Below, in pieces: positions 2,932 to 62,426 of a DNA stretch of 64,000 bases. The DNA comes from Gammaproteobacteria bacterium (GTDB lineage Bacteria > Pseudomonadota > Gammaproteobacteria > CAISUE01). Location of the stretch: NCBI GenBank assembly GCA_021156105.1, contig JAJNBD010000002.1, forward strand, positions 198,416-262,415, in the 5' to 3' direction. A program made the translations under genes and the position numbers. Position 1 is the first letter of the stretch. Each line of letters opens with the position of its first letter. Under the pieces are notes generated by a model that was given only the letters and a program-made list of their open reading frames with translations, did not search any database and was not told the origin of the DNA.

Positions 2932-4509
2932 TTAGGAATCTAGGCTAAACACGACCATCTCTTTATGCCCTAATTTTTCTCGCAAAATAAGTTTTAAATT
3001 TTGTTTTTGCTCATTTGGCAGATCATCAAATGTTTTTGCTTCTGTAATATATAAAGTTTTTGGATTATTGAGTGCCTCAGTAAAATCAATAGTCACGGGT
3101 TGTCGTAAGCTTGATAAAAATTCGATTGGCTCGGCATCGGGGTGGACTTTATAAAAAGTAACCGTGCTATTGGCAGGTAAATTTTGCATGACATGATTAA
3201 CAAAAGGCCTCACACGATTCAAGCTAATTTCAATGGGTTTTACCACAAAAATAATGGCGGCTAAAAAACTTGCCAAGCCAATGCCAATAATTTTTTTGGG
3301 ATTTCGGCTGGCGTATTCCATTGGGTGATGAAATAAAACATAGAGGCTTGCTAGCGCAAAAAGAATTAATGTGCAAAAAGCAGAAACATAATGTGCATTA
3401 ACCTCTAAACTTTTTAAGTGTATAACCACAATGGTTGCAATACAAAGCAAAATCAAAATAAAAGGCAGTGCTAAACAAATGATAGAAAAAATTTGACGAA
3501 TAATTTTTGCGGTTTGCGTATTCATTAACCATAGAGAAGCGCCAAGGAGTGAGATGGCTGGCATCATTGGCAGCGCGTAGCGAATCTTATGTGAGCCTGC
3601 AAGATAAATGCATAGAAGGGTAAGTGTGGTGAATATAGCAAAAGTATTAATTAAGGGGCGAGGAATAATGTTTAAAGGCTGTTTTGTATAAAATCCTAAA
3701 ACAATACCGATAACCGCAAGTTCAAAGGCAATTGCAAAGCTGGTCAGTGCATCTTGTAACACAGCAAGCAAAGAAAAACTTTTTGGATGCAAAACAGGGT
3801 TAAAAATCTGTACTTTGAAAACTTCGATAGCGAATAAAGTGTTACTTTGCAACTTTGCTGCGGCTAAAAGAAAAATACATAATGCTAGAAAAAATAATCC
3901 CGCCTGAAGGCTAAACTGCCTTAACATGAGCCAATTTCGGTGAGCTGTATAAAACGATAGGCAAGTTAATGCAGGTAAAACAAATCCTGCTGGCCCATCA
4001 ATAAAGAAGCCGAAAAGTAATGGTAAGAATAACCAAGTTTTTGCAGATTGACGTATTAATAGATAGAGCGCCCAAGTACAAGCAAGCAAGATAAAAGGCT
4101 CAGGGGTTAAGCTGCGAGCGGCATCAAAAAATTCATAAGTAAAAAGCGATAAGAGAACAGCAATACGACCCCATTCACGGTTGAATGGTAAAGCAATCTT
4201 GTAAATTAAAACTAAGGTCAGTGAAGACGCTAAAGCGCCAGCAAAGATAGCAGAAAAGGTCGTAAACTTGCCGAAAGCTAAAGCAAACAAACTATTAAGA
4301 AGCGCAAGTCCACTGACAGTCGCGGGATAAGGCGTGCCATAAGGTGTGGGGAAAAAGCTGAAGCCATTTCTGAGTATTTCTTGCGCAAAAACAGCGCTAT
4401 GTGTTTCAAAACCAACAAGCTCTCGCCCAAATATTCCATAGAGGAATAATGCTAGGCTGCCGAAAAAAATGATCCAAGGTTCAAGTTTACGTAAAATATC
4501 CATTAGCAT
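2932..4509 (-). CDS. Polytopic GT-C glycosyltransferase, ArnT/PMT_2 (GT83/GT39)-like
   Basis: 525 aa, more than 10 predicted TM helices; N-terminal loop ETHSAVFAQEIL...FPTPYGTPY resembles the ArnT ETRYAE..EM...PY.EKPP motif. Confidence 0.55.
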   Translation of the reverse strand: MLMDILRKLEPWIIFFGSLALFLYGIFGRELVGFETHSAVFAQEILRNGFSFFPTPYGTPYPATVSGLALLNSLFALAFGKFTTFSAIFAGALASSLTLVLIYKIALPFNREWGRIAVLLSLFTYEFFDAARSLTPEPFILLACTWALYLLIRQSAKTWLFLPLLFGFFIDGPAGFVLPALTCLSFYTAHRNWLMLRQFSLQAGLFFLALCIFLLAAAKLQSNTLFAIEVFKVQIFNPVLHPKSFSLLAVLQDALTSFAIAFELAVIGIVLGFYTKQPLNIIPRPLINTFAIFTTLTLLCIYLAGSHKIRYALPMMPAISLLGASLWLMNTQTAKIIRQIFSIICLALPFILILLCIATIVVIHLKSLEVNAHYVSAFCTLILFALASLYVLFHHPMEYASRNPKKIIGIGLASFLAAIIFVVKPIEISLNRVRPFVNHVMQNLPANSTVTFYKVHPDAEPIEFLSSLRQPVTIDFTEALNNPKTLYITEAKTFDDLPNEQKQNLKLILREKLGHKEMVVFSLDS

Positions 4510-4611: not shown

Positions 4612-6066
4612 ATGACGACGACTCGCTGGTTTTATATTTTTTTAATTATTCATATTTTATGTTGGACATTGGCACCAAGCTTGGTGCGCCATACGCTGCC
4701 AATTGATTCTAATGAGTCAACGATTTGGGCAAATCACTTGCAGTGGGGCTATGATCGGGATCCTTACTTTTATGCGTTTTGTGCAAAACTTGCTCTAGCG
4801 TTGAGCCAGCATGCCATGTGGGGAATGTACTTTTTTGGGCAGTGTATGGTTGGTGTTGCCTTATGGGCGATTTGGCGTTTGGCTAGCCAAATGTTGCCTG
4901 CTTGGCATGCCTTGGTGGCTGTCATGATGTTAGAGTTAGTGCAATATTACAATATTGCAGCGATAGATTTTGATGATAATGTTTTACAAATGACAATGTG
5001 GTCATTAACTTTATTAAGTTTTTATCAGGCATTAAGGTTTAATAAAGTATTACACTGGATATTGGCTGGCTTATGCGCGGGTTTAATGTTAATGACGCGT
5101 TATTATGCTGGCATTTTCTTGCTATCCCTATTAATTTTTCTAATCGTAGATAGTCAAAGGCGGCAAATATTTTTACAGCGTCATTTTTATGTGGGTTTGT
5201 TGTTTTTAATCCTTCCTAGTTTGCCACATTTATTTTGGCTTATGCAGCATCAATGGTTAACGGTGCATTATGTATTTGGTCGTATGGATGAGCAATCTAT
5301 GTGGGTGAGCCATATTGTGCAACCCCTGCATTTTATTTGGGCGCAATTGTTAGTATTTTTACCTGCTATCGTATTGTTTATGTCTCTTTGCATTGGTAAA
5401 GATCAAGGGAGAATTGTGGAAAGTAAGCAATTTAACTTGACGCACTTTGACCGCGCTTTTCTTTTTTATCTAGGCATTTTGCCTTTGGTCATAACGATTA
5501 GCCTTTCTTTATTAACTGGCTTTACTTTGCGTGTGCTATGGGGAATGTCGTTGTTATCCCTGGCGGGTATCATGTGGACAGCTTGGGTGCGAGTAGACCT
5601 TACCAAAAAGAATTTAGCTGTTTTTATTTCTTTAATTTTTAGTCTAATGTTGCTCATGGTAGCAGGATATGTCATTTCATTAACAAAATCAGGTGCGCAT
5701 TCAAGCGCTAATTTTCCTGCTGAAAAAATTGCACAACAGTTGACCACAACGTGGCGCCAGCATTACCATCAGCCCTTGCGTTATGTGGTCGGTGCGAGAG
5801 AATTAGCGGGAAACATTGCTTTTTTTTCACCAGATCACCCGACGGTCTATATTGATGCGGACCTTAATGTAAGCACCTGGATAAAGCCCGAAGCCGTAAA
5901 ACAGGCAGGGGCATTATTTGTTTGGGATATGAAAGATGGTATGCCTGCGGAATGGAAACAGCGTTTTCCTAATCTTATCCTACTTGCGCCCCAAGATTAC
6001 TATTCTTTGCAAAATCCAAGCGTTAAAGTCATGACGGTCGGTATGGCTTTACTGCCACCAGCATGA
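4612..6066 (+). CDS. Polytopic membrane protein, probable GT-C glycosyltransferase paralog
   Basis: 484 aa multi-TM, C-terminal soluble domain; arranged divergently from 2932-4509; weaker ArnT-like loop (WGYDRDPYFY). Confidence 0.4.
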   Translation: MTTTRWFYIFLIIHILCWTLAPSLVRHTLPIDSNESTIWANHLQWGYDRDPYFYAFCAKLALALSQHAMWGMYFFGQCMVGVALWAIWRLASQMLPAWHALVAVMMLELVQYYNIAAIDFDDNVLQMTMWSLTLLSFYQALRFNKVLHWILAGLCAGLMLMTRYYAGIFLLSLLIFLIVDSQRRQIFLQRHFYVGLLFLILPSLPHLFWLMQHQWLTVHYVFGRMDEQSMWVSHIVQPLHFIWAQLLVFLPAIVLFMSLCIGKDQGRIVESKQFNLTHFDRAFLFYLGILPLVITISLSLLTGFTLRVLWGMSLLSLAGIMWTAWVRVDLTKKNLAVFISLIFSLMLLMVAGYVISLTKSGAHSSANFPAEKIAQQLTTTWRQHYHQPLRYVVGARELAGNIAFFSPDHPTVYIDADLNVSTWIKPEAVKQAGALFVWDMKDGMPAEWKQRFPNLILLAPQDYYSLQNPSVKVMTVGMALLPPA

Positions 6067-11571: not shown

Positions 11572-12711
11572 ATGGTAAAACGTTTTTTTCCAGAAATCTT
11601 ACTCTTTTTTGCTGCATTGCTATTGTTAGGGGGGATGTTGAATGGCCATGCGATTTGGACGCAAGAATACCGCTGGCAACAAATTGTGCTTCACATGCTT
11701 TCTAGTAAGGATTATTGGCATCCTTATTTAGATGGCCGGCCTTATTATGATAAACCTTTAATGACTTATTGGTTTATTGTAGCGTTGGCAAAATTAAATT
11801 ATGGGGTTTTAACGAAGACATTACTACGTTTGCCATCTGTCTTTGCTGGCTTGATAACATTGGCATGTACTTATTTTCTAGGCAAAAATTTTGGCGATCG
11901 CAAAGTTGCTTTGTTAGCGACTTGGTTTTTGCTGACAACATTTTACTTTGTTTTTTTTGCCAGAACTGCTAGCGCAGATATGTGGAATGTGGCGAGTGTT
12001 TTACTTTGTTTAGTTTGGTTTTTTTATGCAGGTCTATCAGTAAAAAGAGTGTTTTGGCGTGATTTAATATTTTTCCTTTTATTAGCTTTTAGTGCTTTAT
12101 TAAAAGGTTTAATTGGACCGGTGCTTGTTTTTCTTGTTTTAATCCCTACTTTATGGCGCAATCAACTTTGGCAAAGGTTTTTTAATTTTAAATCTATAGC
12201 AGCATTAATGGTTGCAATAGGTTTTTATCTGTTACCCTTTTTTATTTCTTCCGCAACTTCGACTAATTATCAAGAAAATGGTTTGGTAGAGGTATTTCGG
12301 GAAAACGTTTTACGTTTTTTTGAGCCATTTGATCATGAAGGTCCTTGGTGGACATATTTTGCTTATCTGCCGGCTTATTGCGCACCATGGATATTATTAA
12401 GCTTAGTTTTTTTAATGAAACGGCGGAAACCTAGTAGCGAAAATAAAAATTTCCTATATGGAGAGGGCAGTTTCTGCTGGGCTGTGCTAAGTATTTTTAT
12501 CTTTTTATCATTGAGTGGTTCTAGGAGAAGTTATTACATTCTTCCAGCTGTACCTTTTGTTATGCTTTGGTTTGCACAATTATGGCAACAGAAATTTATG
12601 GGAAGCGTCAAGGCAAACTATGTCTTGGCTTGGTTTGTTGGCTTGTTTTATTTAATATTATGTGTTAATTTTTTGATCATTCAACCTTGGTACTACTTAC
12701 ATCATGGCTAA
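11572..12711 (+). CDS. ArnT/PMT_2-like GT-C glycosyltransferase
   Basis: 379 aa polytopic; [15 protein letters not shown] motif typical of the ArnT/GT39 first periplasmic loop; stop overlaps the eno start. Confidence 0.65.
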
Positions 12712-25111: not shown

Positions 25112-25204
25112 TGGCGGAGAGAGAGGGATTCGAACCCTCGATACGGGGGATTCCCGTATACACGAGTTCCAGTCGTGCTCCTTCAACCACTCGGACATCT
25201 CTCC
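25112..25204 (-). tRNA. tRNA-Ser (anticodon GGA)
   Basis: Manual fold: 7-bp acceptor GGAGAGA/TCTCTCC, anticodon stem CACGA/TCGTG with loop CTGGAAC, long variable arm, T-arm GAGGG-TTCGAAT-CCCTC, discriminator G plus CCA. Confidence 0.9.
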
Positions 25205-35218: not shown

Positions 35219-35303
35219 TGATGGGCACGTTACGCTTTGCCCACCCTACAGCATAGGACTACGCAACACTGTAGGGTGGGCAAAGCGTAGCGTGCCCACC
35301 AAA
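35219..35303. repeat. REP doublet (inverted pair, BIME-like) 5' of the RAYT gene
   Basis: gatgggcacgttacgctttgcccaccctacag ... ctgtagggtgggcaaagcgtagcgtgcccacc. Confidence 0.65.
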
Positions 35304-35315
35304 CACAGGAGAAAT

Positions 35316-35826
35316 ATGGGCAATTATCGAAGAATATATCTTTCAGGCGGTTGGTATTTTTTTACAGTAGTAACGTATCAACGCCAGCCTATTCTGTGTG
35401 AGGAAAAAGCATTGCAAAGACTAAAGCAAGCGTTTAAATATACGCAGAAAGATCACCCCTTTAAAACGCATGCCATTGTGATATTGCCAGATCATTTACA
35501 TTGCATTTGGCAGCTTCCAGATGGCGACTCTAATTTTTCAGCGCGCTGGAATAAGATTAAGCGCTATTTTTCGATAGGATCCAGCGCTTTTAGCAATCAT
35601 AGACGTGAAAAAAACATTTGGCAAAGAAGATTTTGGGAGCATGTTCTTAGGGATGAAAAAGATCTTAAAAGGCATTTATTACAACCCAGTAAAGCATGGC
35701 TACGTTAAAGCCCCTAGAGATTGGTTACATAGCTCCTTTCAGAGAGAAGTTGCAAGAGGATTTTACGATAGAAATTGGGGTGCCTATCGAGAGCCTGAAA
35801 GTATAGCGGATATTTTATATGAATAA
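35316..35826 (+). pseudogene. REP-associated tyrosine transposase (RAYT/TnpA-REP, IS200/IS605 superfamily), single-base frameshift near 35670
   Basis: HuH motif LPDHLHCIW and WQRRFWEH...RDE in frame 1. The conserved YYNPVKHGYV...DW..SSF C-terminus continues in the +1 frame. Confidence 0.6.
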
Positions 35827-35935: not shown

Positions 35936-37024
35936 ATGAACGATCAAATTTCTTCTGAAGAGCTGCTGGCTAGATTTGCTTTTTGGCGTGTTTCTGGAGT
36001 GGGGCCTGCGCTGATGGCAGAATGTCTTAAATATTTTGGTAGTATTCAACTTTTGTTTGAGCAGCTGAAAGAATTGCCTGCCCCGTTGCAGACGCTAATA
36101 CAAAAAGCAGATTGGCGAGGTGCTGAAAAAGACTTCCAATGGTTAAATGAGCCAGGGCATCATTTGGTTATCTTAGGTGAAAAAAACTATCCTAAGGTGC
36201 TAGCCGAAATATCGAATCCGCCGCCATTCCTTTTTGTTAGAGGCGATGTGGCAATATTAAACCAAAAGCAAGTTGCGATTGTGGGTAGCCGTAACCCTAC
36301 GCATTATGGTATTAAAATCACGCAGTTATTTGCCCATGGATTTGCTACTGCTGGACTAGCCGTGGCGAGTGGTTTAGCGCTAGGTATTGATGCGATTGCG
36401 CATGAAGCTGTTTTGAAAGTGCCAGGAAAAACTATTGCAGTATTGGCGGTGGGATTAGACCAAGTCTATCCCAAGCGGCATCAAACCCTAGCAGAAAATA
36501 TTTTGCAGCATGGAGGTGCTTTGGTGGGTGAGTTTGGCGTTGGCACTAAGCCAGTTGCAGAAAATTTCCCAAGGCGCAATCGTATTATCAGTGGTTTAAG
36601 CTTAGGAGTATTGGTTGCAGAAGCAACGGTTAAAAGCGGCTCTCTAATTACAGCGCGTTATGCGTTAGAGCAGGGAAGAGAGGTGTTCGCCGTGCCAGGT
36701 TCAATTTTTCAAACGCTTTCGCAAGGCTGTCACGCTTTGATTAAGCAAGGCGCTGTGTGTGTTGAGAAGGTTGCTGATGTGCTCGAAGCCTTATCTTATG
36801 AGATAGTAATGCCAGCTACTGAAGTTAAGCAAAATAAAATTTTTCCAAATCTTACTACAGATGAACATCACGTGCTTAAGCTGTTAAGCGAAATGCCTCG
36901 AGAATTTGAAGATCTGCTTGCCCAATTAGCTTGGCCTAGTGAAAAATTGCAAATCTGTTTAATGCAATTAAGATTTCAAGGGTTAATTGACCACGACTGG
37001 AGTGGTTATGTCATTAAAAGTTAG
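35936..37024 (+). CDS. dprA: DNA-processing protein DprA (Smf)
   Basis: Rossmann-like core with VAIVGSRNPTHYG and a C-terminal winged-helix region. Confidence 0.85.
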   Translation: MNDQISSEELLARFAFWRVSGVGPALMAECLKYFGSIQLLFEQLKELPAPLQTLIQKADWRGAEKDFQWLNEPGHHLVILGEKNYPKVLAEISNPPPFLFVRGDVAILNQKQVAIVGSRNPTHYGIKITQLFAHGFATAGLAVASGLALGIDAIAHEAVLKVPGKTIAVLAVGLDQVYPKRHQTLAENILQHGGALVGEFGVGTKPVAENFPRRNRIISGLSLGVLVAEATVKSGSLITARYALEQGREVFAVPGSIFQTLSQGCHALIKQGAVCVEKVADVLEALSYEIVMPATEVKQNKIFPNLTTDEHHVLKLLSEMPREFEDLLAQLAWPSEKLQICLMQLRFQGLIDHDWSGYVIKS

Positions 37025-38004
37025 CGCGAAATTTTTCTGATACAAAGTAAAGACAAGAGAGGGAGCTCAATTTCCTTTGTTCTTGAAGTTATTGGTGGTG
37101 GAGGGCTATGCTGCTGCTGAGCTAGTGGGCCTCGCTGCGCTGCAATATAGCGGCTTAGCACTTTTTGTCCTGCCGCGAGCATCTCTCGATCTTTTTGGGC
37201 TGCTTCTTGAGCAGCTAATAAAAAGCTCATGCGACTAACTTGAGCCTTGGTGCTAGGGGGAAGGTGCTTAGCACGCAGTGGAGGGGAACGCTGAGCTTCT
37301 CCTAATTTAATTTTAGCTGGCGAAGATGGGGTGGGCGAATCTTTTTTGGCTAAAGGTTTTGGTGATTTCGCATGCTCTATTTTTGTTGCTGCAGGTTCAG
37401 TTTGTGCGATGTCACTAGGTTTTAGCGGTTTAACAAGCTTTGGAAGTTTTGGTATTTCACTTTCTAGGGAGGCTAATTCTTTAGGCTTTTCTTTTGTGGA
37501 TACAGTTAAAGCTGGTAACATTTGGCTTGTGAGCGTTTGTTTCGTGTGGGCAATGCTAGCTGGAGGAGGTGCTTTTGCTGGAAATATTTTTTGCTCACCT
37601 ACTGTGGCAACTCTTTGTTCGTAAGCTGTTTGGCTTGCCGCAAAAGATTGAAATTGTGTTTGCATTCTGATTAAAGCTGAATGATTTTCGGACCGGTTCA
37701 GTGCTTCAATCAAGGGAATTAAGATTGTTTTTTGAGGGTGATTACATAAGCTTGTATAAAGCTCGAAAGGTGTTGTTGCTGTTTCTAAAAAGGCTAATAA
37801 TAAATTTTGTAGTGTGTGTCTTTCACTTAAGTGATGTCTTTGGGCAATTCTTTGAAAGATTGTCGCAATTTGTAATGTATATAATCCACGGTCGCAAAGC
37901 TCTGCCCATTCTTGAAATAAAAGCGTATTTGTTTGGTAGAAAAAAAGCTTAGCATTGATTAAAGTTTCTAGGATTTTCTTATATTCCCCAAATGTTTCGA
38001 GCAT
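37021..38004 (-). CDS. Hypothetical protein with Pro/Lys-rich central region (effector candidate)
   Basis: 327 aa; helical N-terminal domain then repeated PxxP/KPxK segments. Confidence 0.45.
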   Translation of the reverse strand: MLETFGEYKKILETLINAKLFFYQTNTLLFQEWAELCDRGLYTLQIATIFQRIAQRHHLSERHTLQNLLLAFLETATTPFELYTSLCNHPQKTILIPLIEALNRSENHSALIRMQTQFQSFAASQTAYEQRVATVGEQKIFPAKAPPPASIAHTKQTLTSQMLPALTVSTKEKPKELASLESEIPKLPKLVKPLKPSDIAQTEPAATKIEHAKSPKPLAKKDSPTPSSPAKIKLGEAQRSPPLRAKHLPPSTKAQVSRMSFLLAAQEAAQKDREMLAAGQKVLSRYIAAQRGPLAQQQHSPPPPITSRTKEIELPLLSLLCIRKISR

Positions 38005-39442: not shown

Positions 39443-39604
39443 AATAGCTTCTGTATAGTAATATAAAGTTAATTGTAGCGGATCTTTTATGAAAAGCTAT
39501 ACCTGTTTACATTCAGTATATTTCGTGCTTTAATAAAACTGAAGTGGTTTTACTTAAGTCTATTTGCTTAGGTAAAGTTTATTTATTTTAAAAGGAGTTT
39601 AATT

Positions 39605-40192
39605 ATGTTGAAGAAGAAATTGTTGGCGATTGCTGCAACAGCAGCTGTAATGACAGCACCTGTGCTTGCATCAGCAAATCAATTGCAGGACCAAATCAAT
39701 ATTGGTGCAAACTTAGCTGCAGAATTAGCCGCTTACCAAGGAATTTGGCATAGTGACCCAACCCACTCGTTTTCAAGCGATGCTGGTGTAACTGCAATTG
39801 TTAATAGATATGCGGGTGTGATTGCTAGCGGTAGTATTTCTAATACAAGTGAAGCAATTACGATTACTTATGGCTCAGGAAACGCTGTTAACCAAGGTAT
39901 TAGAGGCTTGGTTATGACGTTGACGCCTAAAACCTTCACCGAAGGCGGCGCAAGCGCAACAGGTTTCTCATCTCGTGCAACAGATGCTGCTAAACGTGTA
40001 GACACATGGACCTGTGCATTAGATAACACAACTGTTGGTAATGCAGCATTCATGACTTATGTGGTTGGTGGTAAAACCGCTAACGTTTGGGCAGAAAGTA
40101 AAGTGACTGCTACAGGCGTTAATGGTCAATCTTTAACAAATATCGCAGGCCAAACCTGTGCTAACGTTACTGTTACAACTTCAGCTGGTTAA
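39605..40192 (+). CDS. Secreted pilin-like protein, paralog 1 (Sec signal peptide, two conserved Cys)
   Basis: Signal peptide with ASA cleavage site; RGLVMTLTPK and DTWTCAL...QTCANV motifs shared with the two downstream paralogs; strong SD; own terminator. Confidence 0.6.
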   Translation: MLKKKLLAIAATAAVMTAPVLASANQLQDQINIGANLAAELAAYQGIWHSDPTHSFSSDAGVTAIVNRYAGVIASGSISNTSEAITITYGSGNAVNQGIRGLVMTLTPKTFTEGGASATGFSSRATDAAKRVDTWTCALDNTTVGNAAFMTYVVGGKTANVWAESKVTATGVNGQSLTNIAGQTCANVTVTTSAG

Positions 40193-40228
40193 GATACTTC
40201 TTTAAGTATTTGAAAATAGTTGTGCTTG

Positions 40229-40256
40229 AGGAGGTATTCCAATACCTCCTTTTTTG
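40229..40256 (+). terminator. Rho-independent terminator after pilin-like paralog 1
   Basis: ggaggtatt-cca-atacctcc then T6. Confidence 0.7.
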
Positions 40257-40285
40257 TTAAGAGAATAAGATAAGGTGTGAAAAGG

Positions 40286-40855
40286 ATGTCTTTTTTCTTT
40301 TGTCGGAAGTTTCCTCTTCTGTTTTTACTGCTGGTGAGTTTACTTTTATCACAGCCCGCCTATGCTGTATCACAATTACAAAATGAAATTAATCTTATTT
40401 CGACTTCTATTTCTAAAGCAGTTAAATTTGTTGAAGTTAATAATGCAACGGATGGATATAATTTAGCTAATTTTTCAAATTTAAATATTGCTTCACAGAG
40501 TTTACTCTTAAGTTCTCTTACGATCGATAATGTAACAGGCAAAATTGATCTGGTTGTTGCGGCAGACCGTCCCGCAGTTTCACGCGCTATTCGAGGTTTA
40601 ACGATTAGCCTTACCCCAAAATATTATTCAGCGGATGATCAAAGTTACCATGCTTTTAACCGTACAAACGGCGATGGTTCACACAAAATAGAGACTTGGA
40701 GTTGCACAATTAATAATGCTTCCGCTGGTGCAGATTTTTCTATTTATCGTACATTAGGGCGTATTTACAATGTTTTTGTTCAATCTCAAGTGCTTGATCC
40801 TGAGCTGGAAAATGCATTAAGCAAATATTGCTCTAATACGACAATTGTTGTATAA
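40286..40855 (+). CDS. Secreted pilin-like protein, paralog 2
   Basis: ATG at 40286 (the ORF track uses GTG 40277); signal peptide ...AYA; RGLTISLTPK, ETWSCTIN, KYCSNT motifs. Confidence 0.55.
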   Translation: MSFFFCRKFPLLFLLLVSLLLSQPAYAVSQLQNEINLISTSISKAVKFVEVNNATDGYNLANFSNLNIASQSLLLSSLTIDNVTGKIDLVVAADRPAVSRAIRGLTISLTPKYYSADDQSYHAFNRTNGDGSHKIETWSCTINNASAGADFSIYRTLGRIYNVFVQSQVLDPELENALSKYCSNTTIVV

Positions 40856-40880
40856 GTATAAGTAAACACAAGGGATAAAT

Positions 40881-41378
40881 ATGCGTAAAACAAGGAAGGT
40901 TCTGTTAAGCTTCATTTTATCGCTCACTTTTCTATTTACAAATAGCTTTGCTAATGTAAACATTAATAATTATATCCAGGTTGCTATCAATCAGCTCGGT
41001 GAATTGTCAGGCTATATGTCTTTTTTAACAAGCCATATTGCAGCTCAATTAACTGCGACGCCTGCAAGTAATTTAAATGGCATCAATCATAATGATATCT
41101 TTACCAATGGCGCAACATTTAGTGCGATAGATATCGTTAATGGTGTTATTTATATTTACCTCAATGAAAAAGTTGGTTTAAGCGCAATTGATAATCGTAC
41201 CATTAAATGTACGCCTAACCTAGCAAGCACGCGACAAGACGGGTTATATGATACGATCTTAAGTTGGACTTGTGTAACAGATATTCAGTACATGCATGCA
41301 AATGGGAAAAAATATGGCGTGCTAGATTACTTGCCTTATCCATTGTCTGATGCAACTTACAATGTAGCCATTACTTAA
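40881..41378 (+). CDS. Secreted pilin-like protein, paralog 3 (divergent)
   Basis: Signal peptide ...SFA; IKCTPN and LSWTCVTD motifs; no terminator before mshI-like gene. Confidence 0.5.
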   Translation: MRKTRKVLLSFILSLTFLFTNSFANVNINNYIQVAINQLGELSGYMSFLTSHIAAQLTATPASNLNGINHNDIFTNGATFSAIDIVNGVIYIYLNEKVGLSAIDNRTIKCTPNLASTRQDGLYDTILSWTCVTDIQYMHANGKKYGVLDYLPYPLSDATYNVAIT

Positions 41379-41387
41379 TTAACATTT

Positions 41388-42227
41388 ATGCGAATCAAAA
41401 AAGAAGGGATTAATGATTCTTACCATATCAGTTTAGCAAAAGCTCAGGACAAATTCGGCTGTACAATTGCTTATCAAAATAATTATGGTAAAAAAGAGTT
41501 GATTTTTGCGAATGTTGCAGATTTTGAAAAAATTTGCACAGCCTTGACAGCAATGCTTCCAAAAAGTCAAAGAAATATTTCCCTAAGGATGATATTAGAT
41601 CCTGCAGACTACCGATGCGTGGTAATAGAAAAACCTGCAGTGGCTGATCGTTATCTTCAAGAAGCAATCCATTGGAAATTGACCAAAGAATTACATCAAA
41701 GTTTAGAGAATTATTCGCTGCAAACTTATCAGCCCGTTATGGAGCAGCAGATGCTTTGGGTATATCTGGTTTCAAATGATATTTTAAATCAATATAAGCA
41801 ACTGGCACTTTCTTTTCCGAATTTCAAACTAGAGCTTATTGCTCCTCCAGAATTCGCTTTACTAAACTTGTTGAATGCTCTAACAAATTCAGAGAAGGGG
41901 CGCTTTGGACTTATCCATGAGTTTTCAAACTTTTTTATGCTGATATTTGCACAATCAGGACGGCTTGAGAAAGTTAGTTTAATACCGAGCGCGTCTGAAG
42001 CTGTGAAGTCTGTTTGGTTATCACAGATTCGTAATAGCATAGAATCAGTAGAGTCTACCCAGACGAAAGTGAATAAGTATTTTCTTAGTATCTCTAAAAA
42101 TAGCCAAGAGTTGCTAGCACCAGCATTGCAAGAAGAAAAGTGTGAGCCTTTAGTGCTGCAAAATGTTGAGGTAATTAAGGCAGCAGAATGGGTGGAGTTA
42201 GTAGTTTCGGTAGGAGGGGCTCTATGA
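41388..42227 (+). CDS. MshI-like (PilM-type) pilus assembly protein
   Basis: First gene of an operon whose order matches mshIJKLMNEG; 279 aa cytoplasmic protein. Confidence 0.4.
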   Translation: MRIKKEGINDSYHISLAKAQDKFGCTIAYQNNYGKKELIFANVADFEKICTALTAMLPKSQRNISLRMILDPADYRCVVIEKPAVADRYLQEAIHWKLTKELHQSLENYSLQTYQPVMEQQMLWVYLVSNDILNQYKQLALSFPNFKLELIAPPEFALLNLLNALTNSEKGRFGLIHEFSNFFMLIFAQSGRLEKVSLIPSASEAVKSVWLSQIRNSIESVESTQTKVNKYFLSISKNSQELLAPALQEEKCEPLVLQNVEVIKAAEWVELVVSVGGAL

Positions 42228-42898
42228 ATAAAGTCAATTCTCACTGCCTATTTGATGTCAATTTTGTGCAAGATAAAATTTCTTTTGCTCGTTTGTTCCG
42301 AGTAAAACTGGTTTTAAGTTTTGCGTTTAGCTTGATAGTGTTTCTTGGTCTAATTAGTTTATTATTGTGGGGAAAAGTTTATTTATTAGAAAAAGAGGTT
42401 TCGCAATTAAAAATAACTGAAACGAATGCTGAAAAAACCTTGGCGGGTATGTACAAGAATGATGTTGTTGCCATCTTGGGCGATAAACAGAAAATGGAAC
42501 TTAGAGGGTTCGGTCAAATTTTACAAGGTTTAGCAACCTTGCATTATGAGCAACTTTGGTTGAACACGTTAAATCTTAAAGGTTCACCACTTTCAGTTAG
42601 TATTTATGGTCAAGCGCTTGATTCAAGTTTGGTGCAGTTGTATTACGCAAAGCTTTTGGCTCTTCCTGTATTTTCTCGCTTAGATTTGCGAATTATTGAA
42701 ATTAATGATGTCAAAAAAGCTTTGAGCCAAAAAGAAAAACAAACAATAGAGCGACAGAAAAGCCAAGGCTTACCGGTAGATAATTTTTTAATAAATCCAG
42801 TAACTGATTTTACTATTTCTAACCTTCCAGAAAAAGAAATTAAAAAGAAAAGAGGTGAGGGAGATCCAGATGCAAGGAGTCGTGCAAATGGATTTTAA
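42224..42898 (+). CDS. PilN/MshI2-like bitopic pilus assembly protein
   Basis: aggagg SD before the ATG at 42224; single TM then coiled coil. Confidence 0.4.
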   Translation: MNKVNSHCLFDVNFVQDKISFARLFRVKLVLSFAFSLIVFLGLISLLLWGKVYLLEKEVSQLKITETNAEKTLAGMYKNDVVAILGDKQKMELRGFGQILQGLATLHYEQLWLNTLNLKGSPLSVSIYGQALDSSLVQLYYAKLLALPVFSRLDLRIIEINDVKKALSQKEKQTIERQKSQGLPVDNFLINPVTDFTISNLPEKEIKKKRGEGDPDARSRANGF

Positions 42899-43436
42899 AT
42901 ATAAGTCTCTTTTATTGAATATTAGTGTGATATTAGCTATTTTTTTAGTGATTATATTTTTTTGGCTAAAAAATATATTTTTGCCTTTATACGCTGAAGT
43001 AGATACACAGAAAAAGGCAATTGAGGCTATTGAAGATAAAACCAATAAAATTCTTTCATTCGATAGAAATGAGGCAAATATATTCTTTGCTAACCAATTT
43101 ATTTCTTCTTCTACACTTAATGAGAAGCTTTACCAAATAACTAAGCGTCACCTGAATGTTGTATTATTAACAATGTCTGTTTCAGAGCCGACCAAAATGC
43201 CAGTTGAAAAGGCATTAGGCGCGGATTTAACAGCCTATAGCCATCAGCATATCTCTGAAGTTAAAATAACACATTACCATATGCAAGTTGCAGGGACTTA
43301 CCAAGCTATTTGTAGTTTTTTAAAAGATGTCTATGCTTTGGGGCCAAGCACTTTTTGGGAAAAATTAGATTTGGAGATTGCAAATTACCCAAAACTTGTG
43401 GCAAGTTTAGATTTTTATATTATGGACCGTGCATGA
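42888..43436 (+). CDS. PilO/MshJ-like pilus assembly protein
   Basis: aaggag SD; N-terminal TM; size and position. Confidence 0.4.
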   Translation: MDFKYKSLLLNISVILAIFLVIIFFWLKNIFLPLYAEVDTQKKAIEAIEDKTNKILSFDRNEANIFFANQFISSSTLNEKLYQITKRHLNVVLLTMSVSEPTKMPVEKALGADLTAYSHQHISEVKITHYHMQVAGTYQAICSFLKDVYALGPSTFWEKLDLEIANYPKLVASLDFYIMDRA

Positions 43437-43789
43437 GGAATATTATCTGCTTTGCTTTGCTAGCATTGATAAATTCAGGGTTGGCTGATGTTTTTTATGA
43501 CCCATTTTCGCGTCCTGCGAACATGCAAAGCGCAGCAAAAAATAATGCCTATAGTGTTTTTCAAGGAACTGATTTAAAAATCGATATGCTTATGTTGGCG
43601 CCAGATAAAAAGGATAGCTTTTTTGTGAGCGATGGAAAAGTTTATAAGGTTGGTGATTATTTTGGCTCAAACCAAATCATGGATATTAAAAATTTTAGTG
43701 TTACTTTATGGAATGGGGTGCTTAGTTTTGACATCCCAGTTACAGAGGATATTTCAGGTGATATGCAAATTACGGAGACCGCAGGATAA
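43433..43789 (+). CDS. PilP/MshK-like protein
   Basis: Signal peptide MRNIICFALLALINSGLA; ATGA overlap with the preceding gene. Confidence 0.4.
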   Translation: MRNIICFALLALINSGLADVFYDPFSRPANMQSAAKNNAYSVFQGTDLKIDMLMLAPDKKDSFFVSDGKVYKVGDYFGSNQIMDIKNFSVTLWNGVLSFDIPVTEDISGDMQITETAG

Positions 43790-46328: not shown

Positions 46329-47401
46329 GCATCGTTTTAGATGTTTTGAGAAAGATAGAAAAGACACGCCACCCTCAAAATCAAAGCGATGAGAGTGGCG
46401 ATGAGCAGTTAACCAGTGCCGCTTATGTGCCTCAAGGATCAGGAAAAAATAAGTTTTTTTTGATTAGTGGGTTAGTTGTCTGCATTCTTATACTGCTCGG
46501 GGTCGCTGGATACTTGATTTATAGCCTTTCTGGGCATTTTTCTTTAACGAAACACTCGCAGAAAGCAGAAGCAGCCAAGATTATGTCACAACAAAAAACT
46601 GATTCAAATGCAGCAGAAAACAAGTCACTGCAAGTGCCTGTTCCTGTCAATGTTTTAAGTGAAATAAATAGTGGTGCGTCGCATAACACACCTTATGTGT
46701 TGTCGCCGCATGACTCTTCGGTGCAAAAAGCATTAAAAAATTTTGATAAAAAAATACCCCCGCCACCGCCGCCAACAGATAATTCTTTTAATGATACGTA
46801 TTCTGCGATGAATACGCCACCAAGTGACGTGGTTACTGTTCCAGCAGATGTTGCTTTGAAGAAACTATTAGGTTTGGCAATGTCAGGTCACGAAGATGAA
46901 CTACAAACAGCTTTGACCAGTTATAGTCAGCAAGATAACTTTAATGAAGTTGTCACAAAAGTTATTACAAGTCTTAAAATGGCTAACCGCCCTGAGGTTG
47001 TCATTCGCTTTGCAAGAGATGTTTATTTTGCAGATAACTCAAGCGTTTTTGCGAAGCAATTATTTGCGTCAACTTTAACAGAGTACAACCAGCCTACTCA
47101 GGCAATAAAATTATTAGAAACTGAAATGCCTGATTTTACTAACAATGCTGGTTACTATTCAGTGTTGGCGACAGCGTATCTAAAAAATGCAAATTTCTCT
47201 CAGGCAGGCAGTATTTATCGCAAGTTGGCCGAGCAAGATCCCTATGACGCACGTTACTGGCTAGGATTAGGTATCTGTTATCAAATGCAAAATGATAAAG
47301 ATGGAGCATTAAAAGCATATCAAGCAGCTCTCAGTAATGCCCCACCTGACTGGTCTGCGGCAGCTTATGTAGCGCAACAAATGAGGCAACTTACTCAATG
47401 A
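46325..47401 (+). CDS. MshN-like TPR protein
   Basis: N-terminal TM, poly-Pro tract, C-terminal TPR-like repeats; position. Confidence 0.45.
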   Translation: MSIVLDVLRKIEKTRHPQNQSDESGDEQLTSAAYVPQGSGKNKFFLISGLVVCILILLGVAGYLIYSLSGHFSLTKHSQKAEAAKIMSQQKTDSNAAENKSLQVPVPVNVLSEINSGASHNTPYVLSPHDSSVQKALKNFDKKIPPPPPPTDNSFNDTYSAMNTPPSDVVTVPADVALKKLLGLAMSGHEDELQTALTSYSQQDNFNEVVTKVITSLKMANRPEVVIRFARDVYFADNSSVFAKQLFASTLTEYNQPTQAIKLLETEMPDFTNNAGYYSVLATAYLKNANFSQAGSIYRKLAEQDPYDARYWLGLGICYQMQNDKDGALKAYQAALSNAPPDWSAAAYVAQQMRQLTQ

Positions 47402-49092
47402 CTGAGGTTCTTGGAAAACCGTTAGATTTTTTAACTTTTTTAAGGCAGGTGTCTACTTATCCTTTGGATGGGATTTCCGCTTTACCTGATGGGAAAAATG
47501 CAATTGAGTGGTTATATAATGAAAAGAATTTTCGGCTTGATGAATTAAGGCTATATTATGATTGTTGGTTAGCAATCCCTCAATATAAAATAGAAAAAGT
47601 AGATTTAGGTTTAACTAAATATATTCCAGAAGAGATCGCTAGGCGTTATCTTGCTTTACCTGTTAAGCTCGATAATGAAGAGCTCATTATTGCATTTGCA
47701 AACCCTTTGAAAGTTGAGGCAGTTGCTGCTGTGGTGCAAGCTGTGCGGAACTTCAAAGTAATTCCAGCGATAGCGAAGGAAGAAGATTTAGAGTATGCGC
47801 TTCAAAGCGCATTTCAACATGTAGAAGAAATGCAGGATTTAGCTGAGCAGCTCAATGTTCTGGCGATAGAAGAAAATGTTAAGAAGGTTTCTGATTATGA
47901 AGTGGCAACTGTTGAAGATGATAGTCAAGTTAGCCAATTGCTTAATACAATATTGAATGATGCAATTGAGCAAAATGCTAGCGATATTCATATTGAATAT
48001 GAAAACCAAACTTTGCACGTAAGATACCGTATCGCCACTGTATTAGTTGAGCAAGCAAGCCTCCCTAGGAATACAGCAGATATTCTTTTGCGACGTTTGT
48101 TGATTATCTCAAAAGGTGATATTACTGAACTGCGTTTGCCCCAAGATACAAGCTTTGATTATATTTATCGAGAAAAAAAATATGGCGTGCGGGCATCTTT
48201 TTTATTTACTTCGACAGGTTATACGGTTGTATTGAGGTTATTAAAAGGTTCAAGTTTTTACCAATCACTTAGAAATTTCATTTATGAAGACACGGTTTAT
48301 CAATCCTTAGAGAAGTTTTTAAATGGCAGAAGTGGAATGTTGTTGATTTCTGGCCCAACGTCGAGTGGTAAAACAACAACTATCTATAGTGCTTTATCCT
48401 ATGTTAACAATGCTTCCACAAAAATTATTACCATGGAGGATCCCGTTGAAAGTGAAATTCCGGGGGTAAACCAAGTTGAGATTAATCCTGCGATTGGGCT
48501 TGATTTTTCAGATGTAATTCGCTCCTGTTTGCGTCAAAATCCTGATGTGTTGATGGTGGGGGAAATTCGTGATCAAGTATCTGCATCAATGTCTCTACGA
48601 GCGGCGGTAACAGGTATCATGGTAATGGCAACGATCCATACTAAGAATACTTCTGCTATTGTATTGCGATTATTAGATTTGGGCGTGGAGGCGGCGATGA
48701 TCGCTATGGGGATTAATCTGATGGTATCACAACGGTTGGTTTTATTACTGTGTGATCACTGCAGGGTAGTTACTCCGCTCACGGAGACAGAGTTGCAAGT
48801 GTTAGATGCTTTAGATCCTAAATATCGCCTGCAATCTTTCTATACTTGCTCAGGCTGTGTGCAGTGTAGTTTTACAGGCTACAGCGGGCCTTTGGCGATT
48901 TTTGAGTTGTTAGAAATGGATCAGGAGTTGGCTAATAGCATTCTATCGCAAGAGAGGCATAAGTTTGCTGAGATTGCTGATAAGAAACTCCAAGGTAAAA
49001 CCTTGTTAGATAAAGCGCTGGGGCTTGCATTAGAAGGAAAGATTAGTTTGAAAGAAGTGTTCAAAATTTCATATACTGGATCACTTGCTTAA
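47398..49092 (+). CDS. Type IV pilus / T2SS assembly ATPase (GspE/MshE family)
   Basis: N-terminal GspE_N domain, Walker A GPTSSGKTTT, Asp and His boxes, C-terminal tetra-Cys motif. Confidence 0.85.
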   Translation: MTEVLGKPLDFLTFLRQVSTYPLDGISALPDGKNAIEWLYNEKNFRLDELRLYYDCWLAIPQYKIEKVDLGLTKYIPEEIARRYLALPVKLDNEELIIAFANPLKVEAVAAVVQAVRNFKVIPAIAKEEDLEYALQSAFQHVEEMQDLAEQLNVLAIEENVKKVSDYEVATVEDDSQVSQLLNTILNDAIEQNASDIHIEYENQTLHVRYRIATVLVEQASLPRNTADILLRRLLIISKGDITELRLPQDTSFDYIYREKKYGVRASFLFTSTGYTVVLRLLKGSSFYQSLRNFIYEDTVYQSLEKFLNGRSGMLLISGPTSSGKTTTIYSALSYVNNASTKIITMEDPVESEIPGVNQVEINPAIGLDFSDVIRSCLRQNPDVLMVGEIRDQVSASMSLRAAVTGIMVMATIHTKNTSAIVLRLLDLGVEAAMIAMGINLMVSQRLVLLLCDHCRVVTPLTETELQVLDALDPKYRLQSFYTCSGCVQCSFTGYSGPLAIFELLEMDQELANSILSQERHKFAEIADKKLQGKTLLDKALGLALEGKISLKEVFKISYTGSLA

Positions 49093-50297
49093 TGTTAAAA
49101 AAACTCAAGCTTTTTAGATTTATTGCAGTGAATGCCGCTCAAAAAAAGATTGAGGGTTACCTGTTTGCTTGTCATGCCTCAGAAGTTTATTTTTTTCTTT
49201 CAAAGCAAAACTTAACTTTGGTTTCTGTTCAAGAAGCTTCGCATATTTGGTATTTTCTCAAAAGCTGCCTTTTTTGGTTTTCTTCTATTTACCATATTAC
49301 GCCCAAAATGCAAGCTTTTTTTTATCGTTATTTAGGTGAGTTGTTACAGGCAGGCTTTCCCCCAAGCGAGGCTATTTTTTATTTGTTGAAGAATACACGT
49401 TGCATTCCTTTAAAAAAAATAACTTATATTCTTTGGGTAAGGATAAATCAGGGGCATAAACTGTCACAGGCTTTTGCGGAGTTACCAGAAAGTTTTATTT
49501 CCCGAAGGGACTTGTCGTTAATTACGGCTTCAGAAAATCTGCCCCACATTGAGCAATTGTTTCTCTCGATAGCAGATGAAAAGGAAGAAAGGATTAAAAC
49601 ACGTTTTGCAGTAGTTTCTTCTGTTTATTTGCTGCTAGGGTTAATTTTTGTAATATTCTTTGCTTCACATCATGTGGCGGTTAATACTATTCCTCATTTA
49701 ATTAATGATGGTCGCTTAAATAACTATGAATTAACTGCAACAATGCAGCTGTATAACCTTGTTTTTGGGCTGGAATTTTTAAATATTTTGATCATACTGT
49801 CTTTGACAGCGGTGATTGTATTTTTTCTTTCAAAAATATTTAAAAAGGTTTATATGAGATTTTTGCCTTACTTCCGTGAAATAATAAGAATAGGAGAGGT
49901 TTATAGCTTTTTCTCAGCTTTTGCACTTGGATTGCGTAACCATCTTACACTTCAAGAGGCCTTTTTGATTGCGGGGCAAGCACTCGGGAAAGATTATTTT
50001 AGGAAAAATGCTTTAAAAATCTATGAAAGAATCATTCAAGGAGTTAGATTTGAAGATGCTGTAACTAATTCAAATCTATTGAACTCAGAAGAGCAGCAGC
50101 TGATTAACTTATCTATCGCATCAAGACAGGCAGAAGAAGCGGCAGCCTCTATTAGAGATTATGCAAGAATGAAAATGATTTTTTATACAAAGCTAAGTAC
50201 GAACCTAATCCAAATTAGTCTTGTTGCGCTACTCCTTGCTATCGTTGTCCTGAATATTGCTTTCTTTTTAGAGGTCTATTTTATTACGAAGGGGTGA
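49092..50297 (+). CDS. GspF/MshG/PilC-family inner-membrane platform protein
   Basis: 401 aa, two GspF-like repeats, 3 TM; coupled to the ATPase stop. Confidence 0.7.
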   Translation: MLKKLKLFRFIAVNAAQKKIEGYLFACHASEVYFFLSKQNLTLVSVQEASHIWYFLKSCLFWFSSIYHITPKMQAFFYRYLGELLQAGFPPSEAIFYLLKNTRCIPLKKITYILWVRINQGHKLSQAFAELPESFISRRDLSLITASENLPHIEQLFLSIADEKEERIKTRFAVVSSVYLLLGLIFVIFFASHHVAVNTIPHLINDGRLNNYELTATMQLYNLVFGLEFLNILIILSLTAVIVFFLSKIFKKVYMRFLPYFREIIRIGEVYSFFSAFALGLRNHLTLQEAFLIAGQALGKDYFRKNALKIYERIIQGVRFEDAVTNSNLLNSEEQQLINLSIASRQAEEAAASIRDYARMKMIFYTKLSTNLIQISLVALLLAIVVLNIAFFLEVYFITKG

Positions 50298-60952: not shown

Positions 60953-61699
60953 TTAAGTGTTTTGAGTAAGCTGAGTTAATGTTGTAATAAACAAACTTGG
61001 GTCAGCATTAGCCACTGTGCGGTTACTAATATAATAAACTTTGCCATCTTTTATCACGATGACTGTTGGGATTTCCATGATTTTAAATGCTTGCATTAAC
61101 GCTTGATCGTTTTTGAGATCGGCTTGAAGTTCTGCGCTGTTGGCAACTTTGTCATAGTCTTCAGCTTTAACACCATTGTTTAAGAAAAAGCTGCGTAATT
61201 GTTCATCGCTATTTAAGCCAAGCAATGGGTTTTGAGCAATATCAAAAATTTTGCCATTTAAAGTTTTGTCTAACTTTAATGCATGAGAAATATGATAGGC
61301 TTTGCTTAATACATCCCAGCCTGATTCAAATGCCACAGGAACAGGCTGAAAAGTGATATAAGGTTTTGCTTTTTTATCAGGGCTTCCAAAAGGTGGCAGA
61401 ATTTTCTTGGTATTTGCTGCAACCCATTGGTCAATATAAGAATGCAGTTTGTAACAATGAGGGCAACCGAAGCTAAAAAAATCTAACACTAGAATTTGAT
61501 GCGGCAGTGTTTTTAAGTTGGCCGGTACAAGGTTCGAAGAAAGTGTTTCGTAATTGGGTTTGGTGGTTGGTGCAGGTGTAGCGGTACTGCTAGTTGCTGT
61601 TGGCTTAGCAGCTGGTGTTGTGGAGGTTTGTTGTGCTTGTGCTGTGCTTAAACTAATGGTTAAAACACAAAATAAGATTTTAATTAAAGACTTTTTCAT
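60953..61699 (-). CDS. DsbA-family thiol:disulfide oxidoreductase with Thr/Pro-rich N-terminal linker
   Basis: FFSFGCPHCYKL CxxC motif; signal peptide at the internal Met (MKKSLIKILFCV...AQA); 25 nt downstream of the icmL-like gene. Confidence 0.7.
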   Translation of the reverse strand: MKKSLIKILFCVLTISLSTAQAQQTSTTPAAKPTATSSTATPAPTTKPNYETLSSNLVPANLKTLPHQILVLDFFSFGCPHCYKLHSYIDQWVAANTKKILPPFGSPDKKAKPYITFQPVPVAFESGWDVLSKAYHISHALKLDKTLNGKIFDIAQNPLLGLNSDEQLRSFFLNNGVKAEDYDKVANSAELQADLKNDQALMQAFKIMEIPTVIVIKDGKVYYISNRTVANADPSLFITTLTQLTQNT

Positions 61700-61724
61700 A
61701 ATTTGCTCGTAATAAATAGTTTGT

Positions 61725-62426
61725 TTAACCTTGTGCAGCTTGATTAATGTTTTGTCCGGTTTCTTGGTCTGGATAGCCTTCAGCGGCAATGTAATTGGTA
61801 ATGCCAATACCGTTTGGATTGGTTAGCGTAGAAATTCGCTTAATCATCAAAGTAACAATGAGTGATTGTTGGCTATATTCGCTGGCACTTTGATAAGTGA
61901 CTAAAATAGGTATATTGACTACCCAAGTGTATACGCCATCAAGTATTGCTTCACGTAGGATGGTTGGAGCGCGAGTCGCAACAGCAGAGACCACTAACTT
62001 TTTCTCTAAAACAGCATTTAAGTTACGCGAAGCTTTTAACTCGTTAAGATAGGCTTGCCAGCCATCTGGCGTGAAATATTCAGAGGCTTTTTGCAATTGC
62101 TCACGATAATTGAAAAAGTCATAAGTGTTAACCGCGATGACAGCAGTATTTGCCCATTGGAGAAGCGCCGCTTGCGAAACATTTGGCTGATTCAAGGGAA
62201 TAAGGGGAACAAGCTTGCCGTCGGCATAAGTTGCAAAATATTTTGGTTGAGGCGGATGGCTCATGACATAAATAACTGCGCCAACTAGAATGATCAAACA
62301 TAAGATAGCAAGATTAAGCGCAACGAGTACTTTACGGTAACTATCGCGATAAAATTCGTTGCGTGCGTTGACGGCAACTAGAACTTCATCTTGTTTGGGG
62401 CTATTTGGGTTTGGGGTGTCGGTCAT
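61725..62426 (-). CDS. icmL: Dot/Icm type IVB secretion core protein IcmL/DotI-like
   Basis: 233 aa, single TM after a cytoplasmic N-terminus. The TM-proximal region (YFATYADGKLVPLIPL) is paralogous to the 100-aa gene upstream. This gene sits after an OmpA-like lipoprotein, matching icmN-icmM-icmL. Confidence 0.6.
   Translation of the reverse strand: MTDTPNPNSPKQDEVLVAVNARNEFYRDSYRKVLVALNLAILCLIILVGAVIYVMSHPPQPKYFATYADGKLVPLIPLNQPNVSQAALLQWANTAVIAVNTYDFFNYREQLQKASEYFTPDGWQAYLNELKASRNLNAVLEKKLVVSAVATRAPTILREAILDGVYTWVVNIPILVTYQSASEYSQQSLIVTLMIKRISTLTNPNGIGITNYIAAEGYPDQETGQNINQAAQG

Follow-up and report, generated by a model that had tools for sequence, protein, structure and literature searches.

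Can the globular head of a type IV pilin be put to use without its stem? The question is raised by a locus in 64,000 nucleotides of DNA from Gammaproteobacteria bacterium (GenBank assembly GCA_021156105.1, contig JAJNBD010000002.1, positions 198,416 to 262,415 of the forward strand), here called the window. Three open reading frames (ORFs) on its plus strand, P1, P2 and P3, stand in front of an operon for a pilus machine of the mannose-sensitive hemagglutinin (MSHA) type. All coordinates are positions in this 64-kb window, unless another locus is named. To our knowledge, all described subunits of type IV filaments (pili, the endopili of type II secretion systems (T2SS), Com and Tad pili, and archaella) share a class III leader and a hydrophobic alpha1-N stem. 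These two features define how a subunit waits in the membrane, how it is processed by prepilin peptidase, and how the core of the filament is held together. A family that is linked to such a machine, keeps the head and swaps the stem for a Sec signal is therefore a natural experiment on the head alone.

The reading that we favor, and to which we give an even chance, is that P1-P3 are pilin-derived soluble heads that Sec delivers and that the MSHA-type machine then handles, be it as cargo, tip subunits or accessory subunits.

Predicted fold of P1

An AlphaFold2 model of P1 was built on a family alignment of 10 sequences and reached a predicted local distance difference test (pLDDT) score of 83.2 and a predicted template modeling (pTM) score of 0.79. 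It consists of one long continuous helix (residues 4-48), a short helix in the alpha-beta loop, and a four-stranded sheet. The pLDDT is about 55 for residues 1-20 and 87-96 for residues 21-50, where the helix is packed on the sheet. The arrangement that characterizes a pilin head, alpha1-C packed on a four-stranded antiparallel beta-sheet, is thus present in the model.

When the model was compared with known structures by Foldseek, pilins occupied ranks 1-9, with probabilities of 0.89-1.0 for the first seven and modest E-values (0.012-0.08), and two structure-comparison methods both placed pilins at the top. The Pfam Pilin family (PF00114) gave sub-threshold matches in four of 11 family members (best E = 0.0017), and P3 scored 16.3 bits against the cut-off of 22. 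No member of the family matched PF07963 (N_methyl). A pilin-like fold had been proposed in an earlier note on this DNA, which was made from the sequence alone, and this structural half of its interpretation is supported by the independent evidence of the model, the ranking and the Pfam matches. One PDB match, 'pilus-like-gamma' (9xnh), was considered and found to have no special relation to the P1-P3 family; it is a bacterial pilus with a rise of 10.4 Å from an environmental water sample (PMC12956863).

Leaders and N-termini

The N-termini of P1-P3 are of the Sec type, with two to four Lys or Arg residues, an uncharged core of 14-19 residues, and small residues at -3 and -1. In P1 the signal peptide comprises residues 1-24 (MLKKK followed by LLAIAATAAVMTAPVLASA), with a predicted cut at ASA↓NQ, and the signal peptides of P2 and P3 end in AYA↓VSQ and SFA↓NV, respectively (arrows mark predicted cuts). 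The same tripartite leader is present in every complete member of the family: two to four Lys/Arg are followed by 12-23 uncharged residues and by small residues at -3/-1. Predicted cuts across the family include ASA↓N, AYA↓V, SFA↓N, LYA↓A, ATA↓A, CFA↓R, VFA↓E and AMA↓K, and Pro is frequent at -4 to -6. Pro22 of pilins may have left a vestige in the Pro at -6. Gly-1 with Glu+5, the class III motif, is absent from P1-P3 and from every homologue found. The observation that the leaders are of the Sec type and not of the prepilin type, originally made for the three proteins, thus extends to every complete homologue found.

True pilins are most conserved in alpha1-N. The present family shows the reverse pattern, since its leader region is unconserved and conservation starts directly after the predicted cut (LQxQL). 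Nor was a conserved hydrophobic alpha1-N found, the corresponding stretch being 12-23 residues long, unconserved, and followed by the small -3/-1 residues. About 24 helical residues remain after the predicted cut of P1, and the mature protein would therefore begin roughly at the start of a pilin alpha1-C.

Mis-called N-termini that hide prepilin leaders, named in the earlier note as a possible source of error, were considered and rejected. None of the three ORFs can be extended upstream; each already begins at the first start codon after the preceding in-frame stop, which excludes a hidden prepilin leader, and no class III motif was present in any frame. Lipoproteins were rejected by eye, as neither P1-P3 nor their homologues have a lipobox Cys at +1.

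Sequence relationships and cysteines

P1 and P2 are recognizable as paralogues by BLASTP (E = 1e-16, 32% identity across the C-terminal 97 residues), whereas P3 was undetectable when compared with P1 and P2 in the same way (E = 2.6). For a P3 profile, the genes at the corresponding position in two other loci were taken as orthologues and aligned with P3, and hhalign was used to compare this profile with the alignment of the family to which P1 and P2 belong. The probability was 96.9% (E = 1.9e-10) with signal peptides included, and 94.4% (E = 9.2e-8), across the beta-sheet core, with signal peptides removed. Judged by these profiles, the proteins form two classes, class 1 (P1 and P2) and class 3 (P3), which are remote homologues of each other. 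The description of all three as paralogues therefore holds at the BLAST level for P1 and P2, and at the profile level only for P3.

The motif RGL(V/T)(M/I)(T/S)LTPK, which had been ascribed to all three proteins, is common to P1 and P2 only, the equivalent in P3 being DNRTIKCTPN. W(T/S)C does occur in P1, P2 and P3, as had been stated. Class 1 has two invariant Cys (Cys137 and Cys185 in P1), the second of which follows the Cys of W.C by 42-48 residues, and they are candidates for a D-region-like disulfide. The earlier claim of a second Cys 30-40 residues later is correct for P1 and P2 as regards its presence, but not its spacing, and it fails for P3. The window P3 has no Cys after W.C, and its other Cys lies 21 residues earlier, at residue 110 (IKCTPN). 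The P3 orthologues (positions 674-1189 of locus L003 and 5344-5817 of locus L005) end in WPLSxC, and the window P3 has lost this C-terminal Cys. A disulfide in P3, if any, would be differently placed, because the C-terminal Cys is lost and Cys110 is present instead.

Rarity and conserved gene neighborhood

With a P1/P2 profile, an exhaustive HMMER search of 1.84 billion representative proteins returned 10 clusters, all of which have Sec-type leaders with the exception of one N-terminal fragment. Word-indexed homologue searches yielded P1 itself only, and then three proteins. No confirmed relative was obtained from a motif scan of 185,579 species-representative (GTDB) genomes, and no confirmed locus from a family-alignment search of metagenome contigs of the Joint Genome Institute (JGI). 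Among PDB sequences nothing relevant, and no significant match to solved pilins, was found with the P1/P2 profile or P3. P1-P3 matched no family at threshold in Pfam and NCBIfam, and P1 is annotated 'hypothetical protein'. The literature on Sec-dependent or stemless pilins contained no description of such a family, in a coverage that was incomplete and is not proof of novelty. The suggestion that the family is undescribed is in line with the absence of Pfam, NCBIfam and PDB sequence matches and with its naming.

In all four loci with upstream context (the window, the contig of the family member P0003, L003 and L005), class-1 and class-3 genes lie immediately upstream of the same mshI..mshG operon, and the secretins of the four loci are only 39-48% identical. 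On its 223-kb contig, P0003 is followed by a 168-aa protein with a weak Pilin match and then by the operon (secretin 44% identical). In L003, the family member P0009 is followed by a 171-aa class-3 protein and then by mshI-like genes. In L005, a class-3 gene and two 190-aa Sec-type genes lie beside mshI (secretin 39% identical); one of the two is related to class 1 with an hhalign probability of 96%, and the other is weakly related. Neither of the two outcomes that the earlier note had named as refuting its reading occurred, namely a predicted structure without a pilin-like fold in a family that also exists in genomes devoid of type IV pilus genes, or mis-called N-termini with prepilin leaders.

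Conventional prepilins in the window and in related loci

Strict and relaxed six-frame scans for the class III motif found none in the 64-kb window; the prepilins of two related loci, L006 and L007, were detected as controls. The same scans found no class III pilin in the 19 kb of L005, and no mshA class III major pilin, a mandatory MSH gene, was found within the window. The MSH class has mshA, E, G, L and M as its mandatory genes, of which mshA may stand alone as a loner gene, and MSH loci generally lack a prepilin peptidase (Denise et al. 2019, PMC6668835). As the absence of a peptidase is normal and mshA can be a loner, the 'prepilin-less' cluster does not show a machine without conventional pilins, and the conventional pilins for the machine of the window may sit elsewhere in the genome. 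The earlier statement that the cluster holds neither prepilin nor peptidase is thus borne out for the class III motif in the window, but is weaker evidence than was claimed.

The more distant msh-like operon of L006 (GCA_014466275.1, contig JACKZZ010001257.1) comes from a genome that also has two genes for TLC ATP/ADP translocases. Its three prepilin paralogues, in tandem and 262-272 aa long (18418-21221 of L006, minus strand), exhibit an unusual class III motif, G↓SFFAE with Ser at +1, and an alpha1-C of the ARAQVSEA type; one of them passes the Pfam Pilin threshold (22.7 bits). A divergent Peptidase_A24 (prepilin peptidase) gene (6574-7455 of L006, minus strand) is located directly upstream of mshI, and L006 is itself atypical in this respect, because MSH loci are reported without a prepilin peptidase. 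In L007, three GF(T/S)LIE prepilins lie near a related operon. The conventional prepilins of L006 and L007 imply a conventional ancestral state, and the Sec-type state is thus a derived one that arose in a small clade of the MSH-type systems. We also considered whether class 1 is directly homologous to the class III pilins of L006; this is not demonstrable (hhalign E = 0.19), the two having only a generic V..G..I.L.P...W.C pattern in common.

A proposed role for P1-P3 and its alternatives

If P1-P3 are soluble heads handled by the machine, the family would be derived from type IVa pilins, with a Sec signal peptide in place of the class III leader and the alpha1-N stem. The precursors would cross the inner membrane via Sec, and signal peptidase I would cut after the AxA-type site and thereby free a soluble pilin head from about the start of alpha1-C, equivalent to the delta-N28 constructs of crystallographers or to gonococcal S-pilin. 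The heads of P1 and P2 would be stabilized by the D-region-like disulfide. The freed heads may be dedicated partners of the co-transcribed MshI/J/K, MshL, MshM/N, MshE and MshG machine, which would most likely export them via the secretin, onto the cell surface or into the medium. They could travel as cargo in the manner of T2SS substrates and TcpF, or else as soluble subunits for docking at the side or tip of a filament whose conventional pilins are encoded elsewhere. P1, with its own Shine-Dalgarno sequence and terminator, would be the abundant species, and P2 and P3, made together with the machine, would be partners of low copy number.

Several observations weigh against this proposal. The cleavage of the leaders is predicted by sequence rules, and the mature N-terminus of P1 is predicted to be helical (pLDDT >87 from residue 21), not disordered like the export signal of TcpF. 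No conventional pilin for a carrying filament was found within the 64-kb window or L005, and the cargo model therefore needs genes outside these stretches. The layout, with an abundant first gene and its terminator, minor paralogues and then the machine, looks like an operon for major and minor pilins and not like a cargo gene. Finally, P3 is without the C-terminal Cys that its orthologues have kept, and the P3 model is of low confidence, with an alignment borrowed from class 1.

Such a layout leads to the alternative that P1-P3 are real filament subunits, independent of prepilin peptidase, in which either the uncut leader serves as a degenerate alpha1-N anchor or soluble heads polymerize in a new way. 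They occupy the position of pilins at the head of the operon, P1 has the expression layout of a major pilin (strong Shine-Dalgarno sequence, own terminator), and class-1 and class-3 genes are found in every locus, like major and minor pilins. This alternative would also agree with the fact that Sec precursors and prepilins have equal N-in/C-out topology, and with the single continuous helix given to residues 4-48 of P1 by AlphaFold2. However, residues 1-20 reach a pLDDT of only about 55, and known type IV filaments are held by the packing of alpha1-N. The hydrophobic h-region of the family is unconserved in sequence and in length (12-23 aa) and has no Glu5, and in essentially all members it precedes a small -3/-1 site, in many cases with Pro at -4 to -6; only under selection for cleavage would one expect this combination. 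The scans that found no class III pilin in the 64-kb window or the 19 kb of L005 can be counted in favor of filament subunits, but mshA can be encoded away from the MSH locus (PMC6668835). We consider filament subunits rather improbable. The further-reaching version, in which the machine of this Dot/Icm-bearing clade would have given up class III pilins wholly and would use only Sec-delivered heads, processed by signal peptidase I and either polymerized in a new way or pumped without a conventional piston, we consider slightly less probable still.

P1-P3 might instead stay in the cell as periplasmic accessory or regulatory mimics of pilins, which would prime, cap, gate or inhibit assembly. The surfaces by which a pilin head contacts other pilins or the machine would allow them to bind to the secretin, to the alignment complex or to the pool of pilins. 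The Sec leader delivers to the periplasm, P2 and P3 appear to be co-transcribed with the machine genes, and the soluble protein in the MshK/PilP position likewise carries a Sec leader. On the other hand, P1 seems to be built for high expression and has a composition typical of exposed fiber or surface proteins, and the three diverged copies per locus, with a rapid divergence between loci (20-30% identity), suit exposed proteins better than stoichiometric parts. We consider a purely periplasmic role unlikely. Decaying pilin remnants, or unrelated secreted proteins that adjoin the operon by chance, could account for a Pfam Pilin similarity below threshold and for the modest Foldseek E-values, and intracellular bacteria often carry decaying pilus loci. 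Yet the ORFs are intact, and an invariant Arg, an invariant Pro and two invariant Cys are kept across at least nine clusters at 21-30% identity. The machine genes are all intact as well, with strong domain scores for the ATPase and the secretin, the class-1 plus class-3 layout recurs beside the operon in four independent loci in spite of the divergence of their secretins, and both structure-comparison methods put pilins first. Decay or chance is therefore very hard to believe.

Comparison with known systems

The P1 model has a globular head like that of the type IVa major pilins (PilE of Neisseria gonorrhoeae, 1ay2; PilA of Pseudomonas and Burkholderia). P1-P3 differ from these in that they are without a class III leader, Gly-1/Glu+5 and a conserved alpha1-N, and carry a leader of the Sec/signal-peptidase-I type instead. 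Because the tests for a class III leader and for alpha1-N failed and the head alone is kept, the family was not filed as type IV pilins.

Gonococcal S-pilin is a soluble PilE head, cleaved between residues 39 and 40 and released (PMC4877100). P1-P3 resemble it as stemless and presumably soluble pilin heads. However, S-pilin arises by proteolysis of a normal class III pilin, a process called unique to pathogenic Neisseria (PMC4877100), whereas the stemless form of P1-P3 would be encoded as such, delivered by Sec, and would keep about 24 residues of alpha1-C.

TcpF of the toxin-coregulated pilus (TCP) in Vibrio cholerae and CofJ of colonization factor antigen III (CFA/III) of enterotoxigenic Escherichia coli (ETEC) are exported by Sec, encoded by the pilus operon, and dependent on the machine for crossing the outer membrane (PMC10120004). 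Like them, P1-P3 have a Sec signal peptide and are encoded within the pilus operon. TcpF and CofJ are from type IVb systems, though, and their export signal, at the N-terminus, is disordered and binds to the minor pilin of the tip (PMC10120004), whereas P1 has a pilin fold, a helical N-terminus in the predicted mature protein, and a machine of the MSHA type. The proposal that P1-P3 are TcpF/CofJ-like substrates accordingly survives as a functional analogy, but does not extend to the disordered signal. PilC/PilY1 are also not of class III and join the tip of type IV filaments by donating a beta-strand to a minor pilin (PMC13533445); they differ from P1-P3 in being large adhesins without a pilin fold.

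The canonical MSHA locus of Vibrio (mshHIJKLMNEGF + mshBACDOPQ) has the same machine genes in the same order (I, J, K, L, M, N, E, G) as the window, and in both the genes form a single locus with MshEN on the ATPase and without a prepilin peptidase. The window locus differs by having three Sec-type pilin-head genes upstream and no class III pilin operon of the mshBACD type, and by a secretin that scores below the MshL equivalog cut-off (TIGR02519, its best NCBIfam match; 215.9 vs 250 bits).

The locus offers a concrete case of conversion from a class III to a class I signal peptide, and related loci with prepilins and a peptidase are available for comparison. A pilin head on its own might be a cargo, a tip adaptor, a decoy or a subunit of a new kind, and in Dot/Icm-bearing hosts P1-P3 could be factors that intracellular bacteria of protists secrete or display on their surface. 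If the heads are cargo or accessory subunits the gain would be modest, namely a new exoprotein or accessory family for MSH-type systems. If the machine worked wholly with Sec-delivered heads, a type IV filament machine could do without prepilin peptidase and alpha1-N, and the definition of such machines would change.

Gene layout and the MSHA-type operon

The features of the locus are listed in Table 1. Gene callers choose ATG 40286 and not GTG 40277 as the start of P2. The three ORFs of 195, 190 and 165 aa given in the earlier note are real, with the lengths of P1 and P3 unchanged and P2 corrected to 192 or 189 aa. The motifs of P2 are RGLTISLTPK, WSC and the C-terminal Cys, and P1 is rich in Ala, Thr, Gly, Ser and Asn and low in charge. 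The strong Shine-Dalgarno sequence and the separate terminator ascribed to P1 were both found. P2 and P3 are contiguous with the mshI-like gene, as had been described: the gaps are 25 nt between P2 and P3 and 9 nt between P3 and the next gene, and no terminator-like site was found between P2, P3 and that gene.

Table 1. Features of the P1-P3 region and of the adjoining MSHA-type operon in the window
Feature	Position	Strand	Remarks
Shine-Dalgarno sequence of P1, AAAGGAG	39592..39598	+	direct sequence reading; 6 nt 5' of ATG 39605
P1, 195 aa, class-1 Sec-type pilin-head protein	39605..40192	+	
Intrinsic-terminator-like hairpin 3' of P1	40228..40251	+	10 bp, then T-run TTTTGTT
P2, class-1 paralogue of P1	40286..40855	+	189 aa from ATG 40286; 192 aa from GTG 40277
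P3, 165 aa, class-3 Sec-type pilin-like protein, remote homologue of P1 and P2	40881..41378	+	
MshI/PilM-position protein, 279 aa	41388..42227	+	no family match; position kept in all loci
PilN/MshJ-like bitopic protein, 224 aa as called	42224..42898	+	Pfam PilN E = 2.9e-4; longest ORF from 42188
PilO/MshJ-position protein, 188 aa as called	42870..43436	+	conserved position only; no family match
MshK/PilP-position small protein, 118 aa as called, Sec-type leader	43433..43789	+	position only
Secretin, MshL-like lipoprotein, 529 aa	43789..45378	+	Pfam Secretin 2.1e-27
MshM-like AAA_22 (ExeA-type) ATPase, 311 aa	45393..46328	+	Pfam AAA_22 3.3e-25
MshN-like TPR protein, 358 aa	46325..47401	+	Pfam TPR families
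MshE-like assembly ATPase, 564 aa, N-terminal MshEN (c-di-GMP-binding type)	47398..49092	+	T2SSE 2.5e-99; MshEN 7.2e-13
MshG-like platform protein, 401 aa, last operon gene	49092..50297	+	T2SSF 4.4e-18, two stretches

The nine genes 3' of P3 form an MSHA-type set in an order like mshI-J-K-L-M-N-E-G, and the operon ends at 50297. They include mshE with MshEN, mshG and mshM of the MSH class. The MshI/PilM-position protein exhibits weak similarity to the first operon gene of L005 (E = 0.001) and of L006 (E = 0.008). The secretin is 30-36% identical to named MshL proteins, and MshL is also the name that the sources give to its close relatives. In NCBIfam, the MshM-like ATPase best matches the XrtA/PEP-CTERM-associated ATPase TIGR03015 (176 bits, below cut-off), and the MshN-like protein best matches the PEP-CTERM TPR protein PrsT; these matches are due to the fact that a pair of an ExeA-type AAA protein and a TPR protein is common to both systems. 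The operon is followed by housekeeping genes (PCMT, TolC-like, Obg).

Host and neighboring genes

Dot/Icm type IVB secretion genes are located at 60953-64000 (minus strand) and run past the end of the window. They comprise a DotI/IcmL-like gene (61725-62426), two small ORFs (62423-63257), and a DotL/TraG-like coupling protein that starts at 63336 and extends past the end of the window, where DotM follows; positions 60953-61807 contain a DsbA-like gene (all minus strand). The presence of Dot/Icm genes indicates that the host is an intracellular bacterium of the Legionellales type or similar to it. PilD, a T2SS and type IVa pili are usual in Legionellales-like bacteria.

About 4 kb upstream of P1, between fmt and dprA, there is an IS200-like Y1 transposase ORF (35292-35708, plus strand; Pfam Y1_Tnp 5.9e-7). 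Three genes for membrane glycosyltransferases of the PMT_2 family (ArnT/protein mannosyltransferase-like) lie within 10 kb of one another, at 2932-4509 (minus strand), 4612-6066 (plus strand) and 11572-12711 (plus strand). The sole Rfam match above gathering score in the window is a tRNA of 90 nt (25115-25204, minus strand), which is longer than typical. Between dprA and an enoyl-CoA hydratase gene, positions 37021-38004 (minus strand) encode a 327-aa protein with no family match, the C-terminal half of which is a long Pro/Lys/Ser-rich stretch of low complexity; in an organism with Dot/Icm genes this protein could be effector-like.

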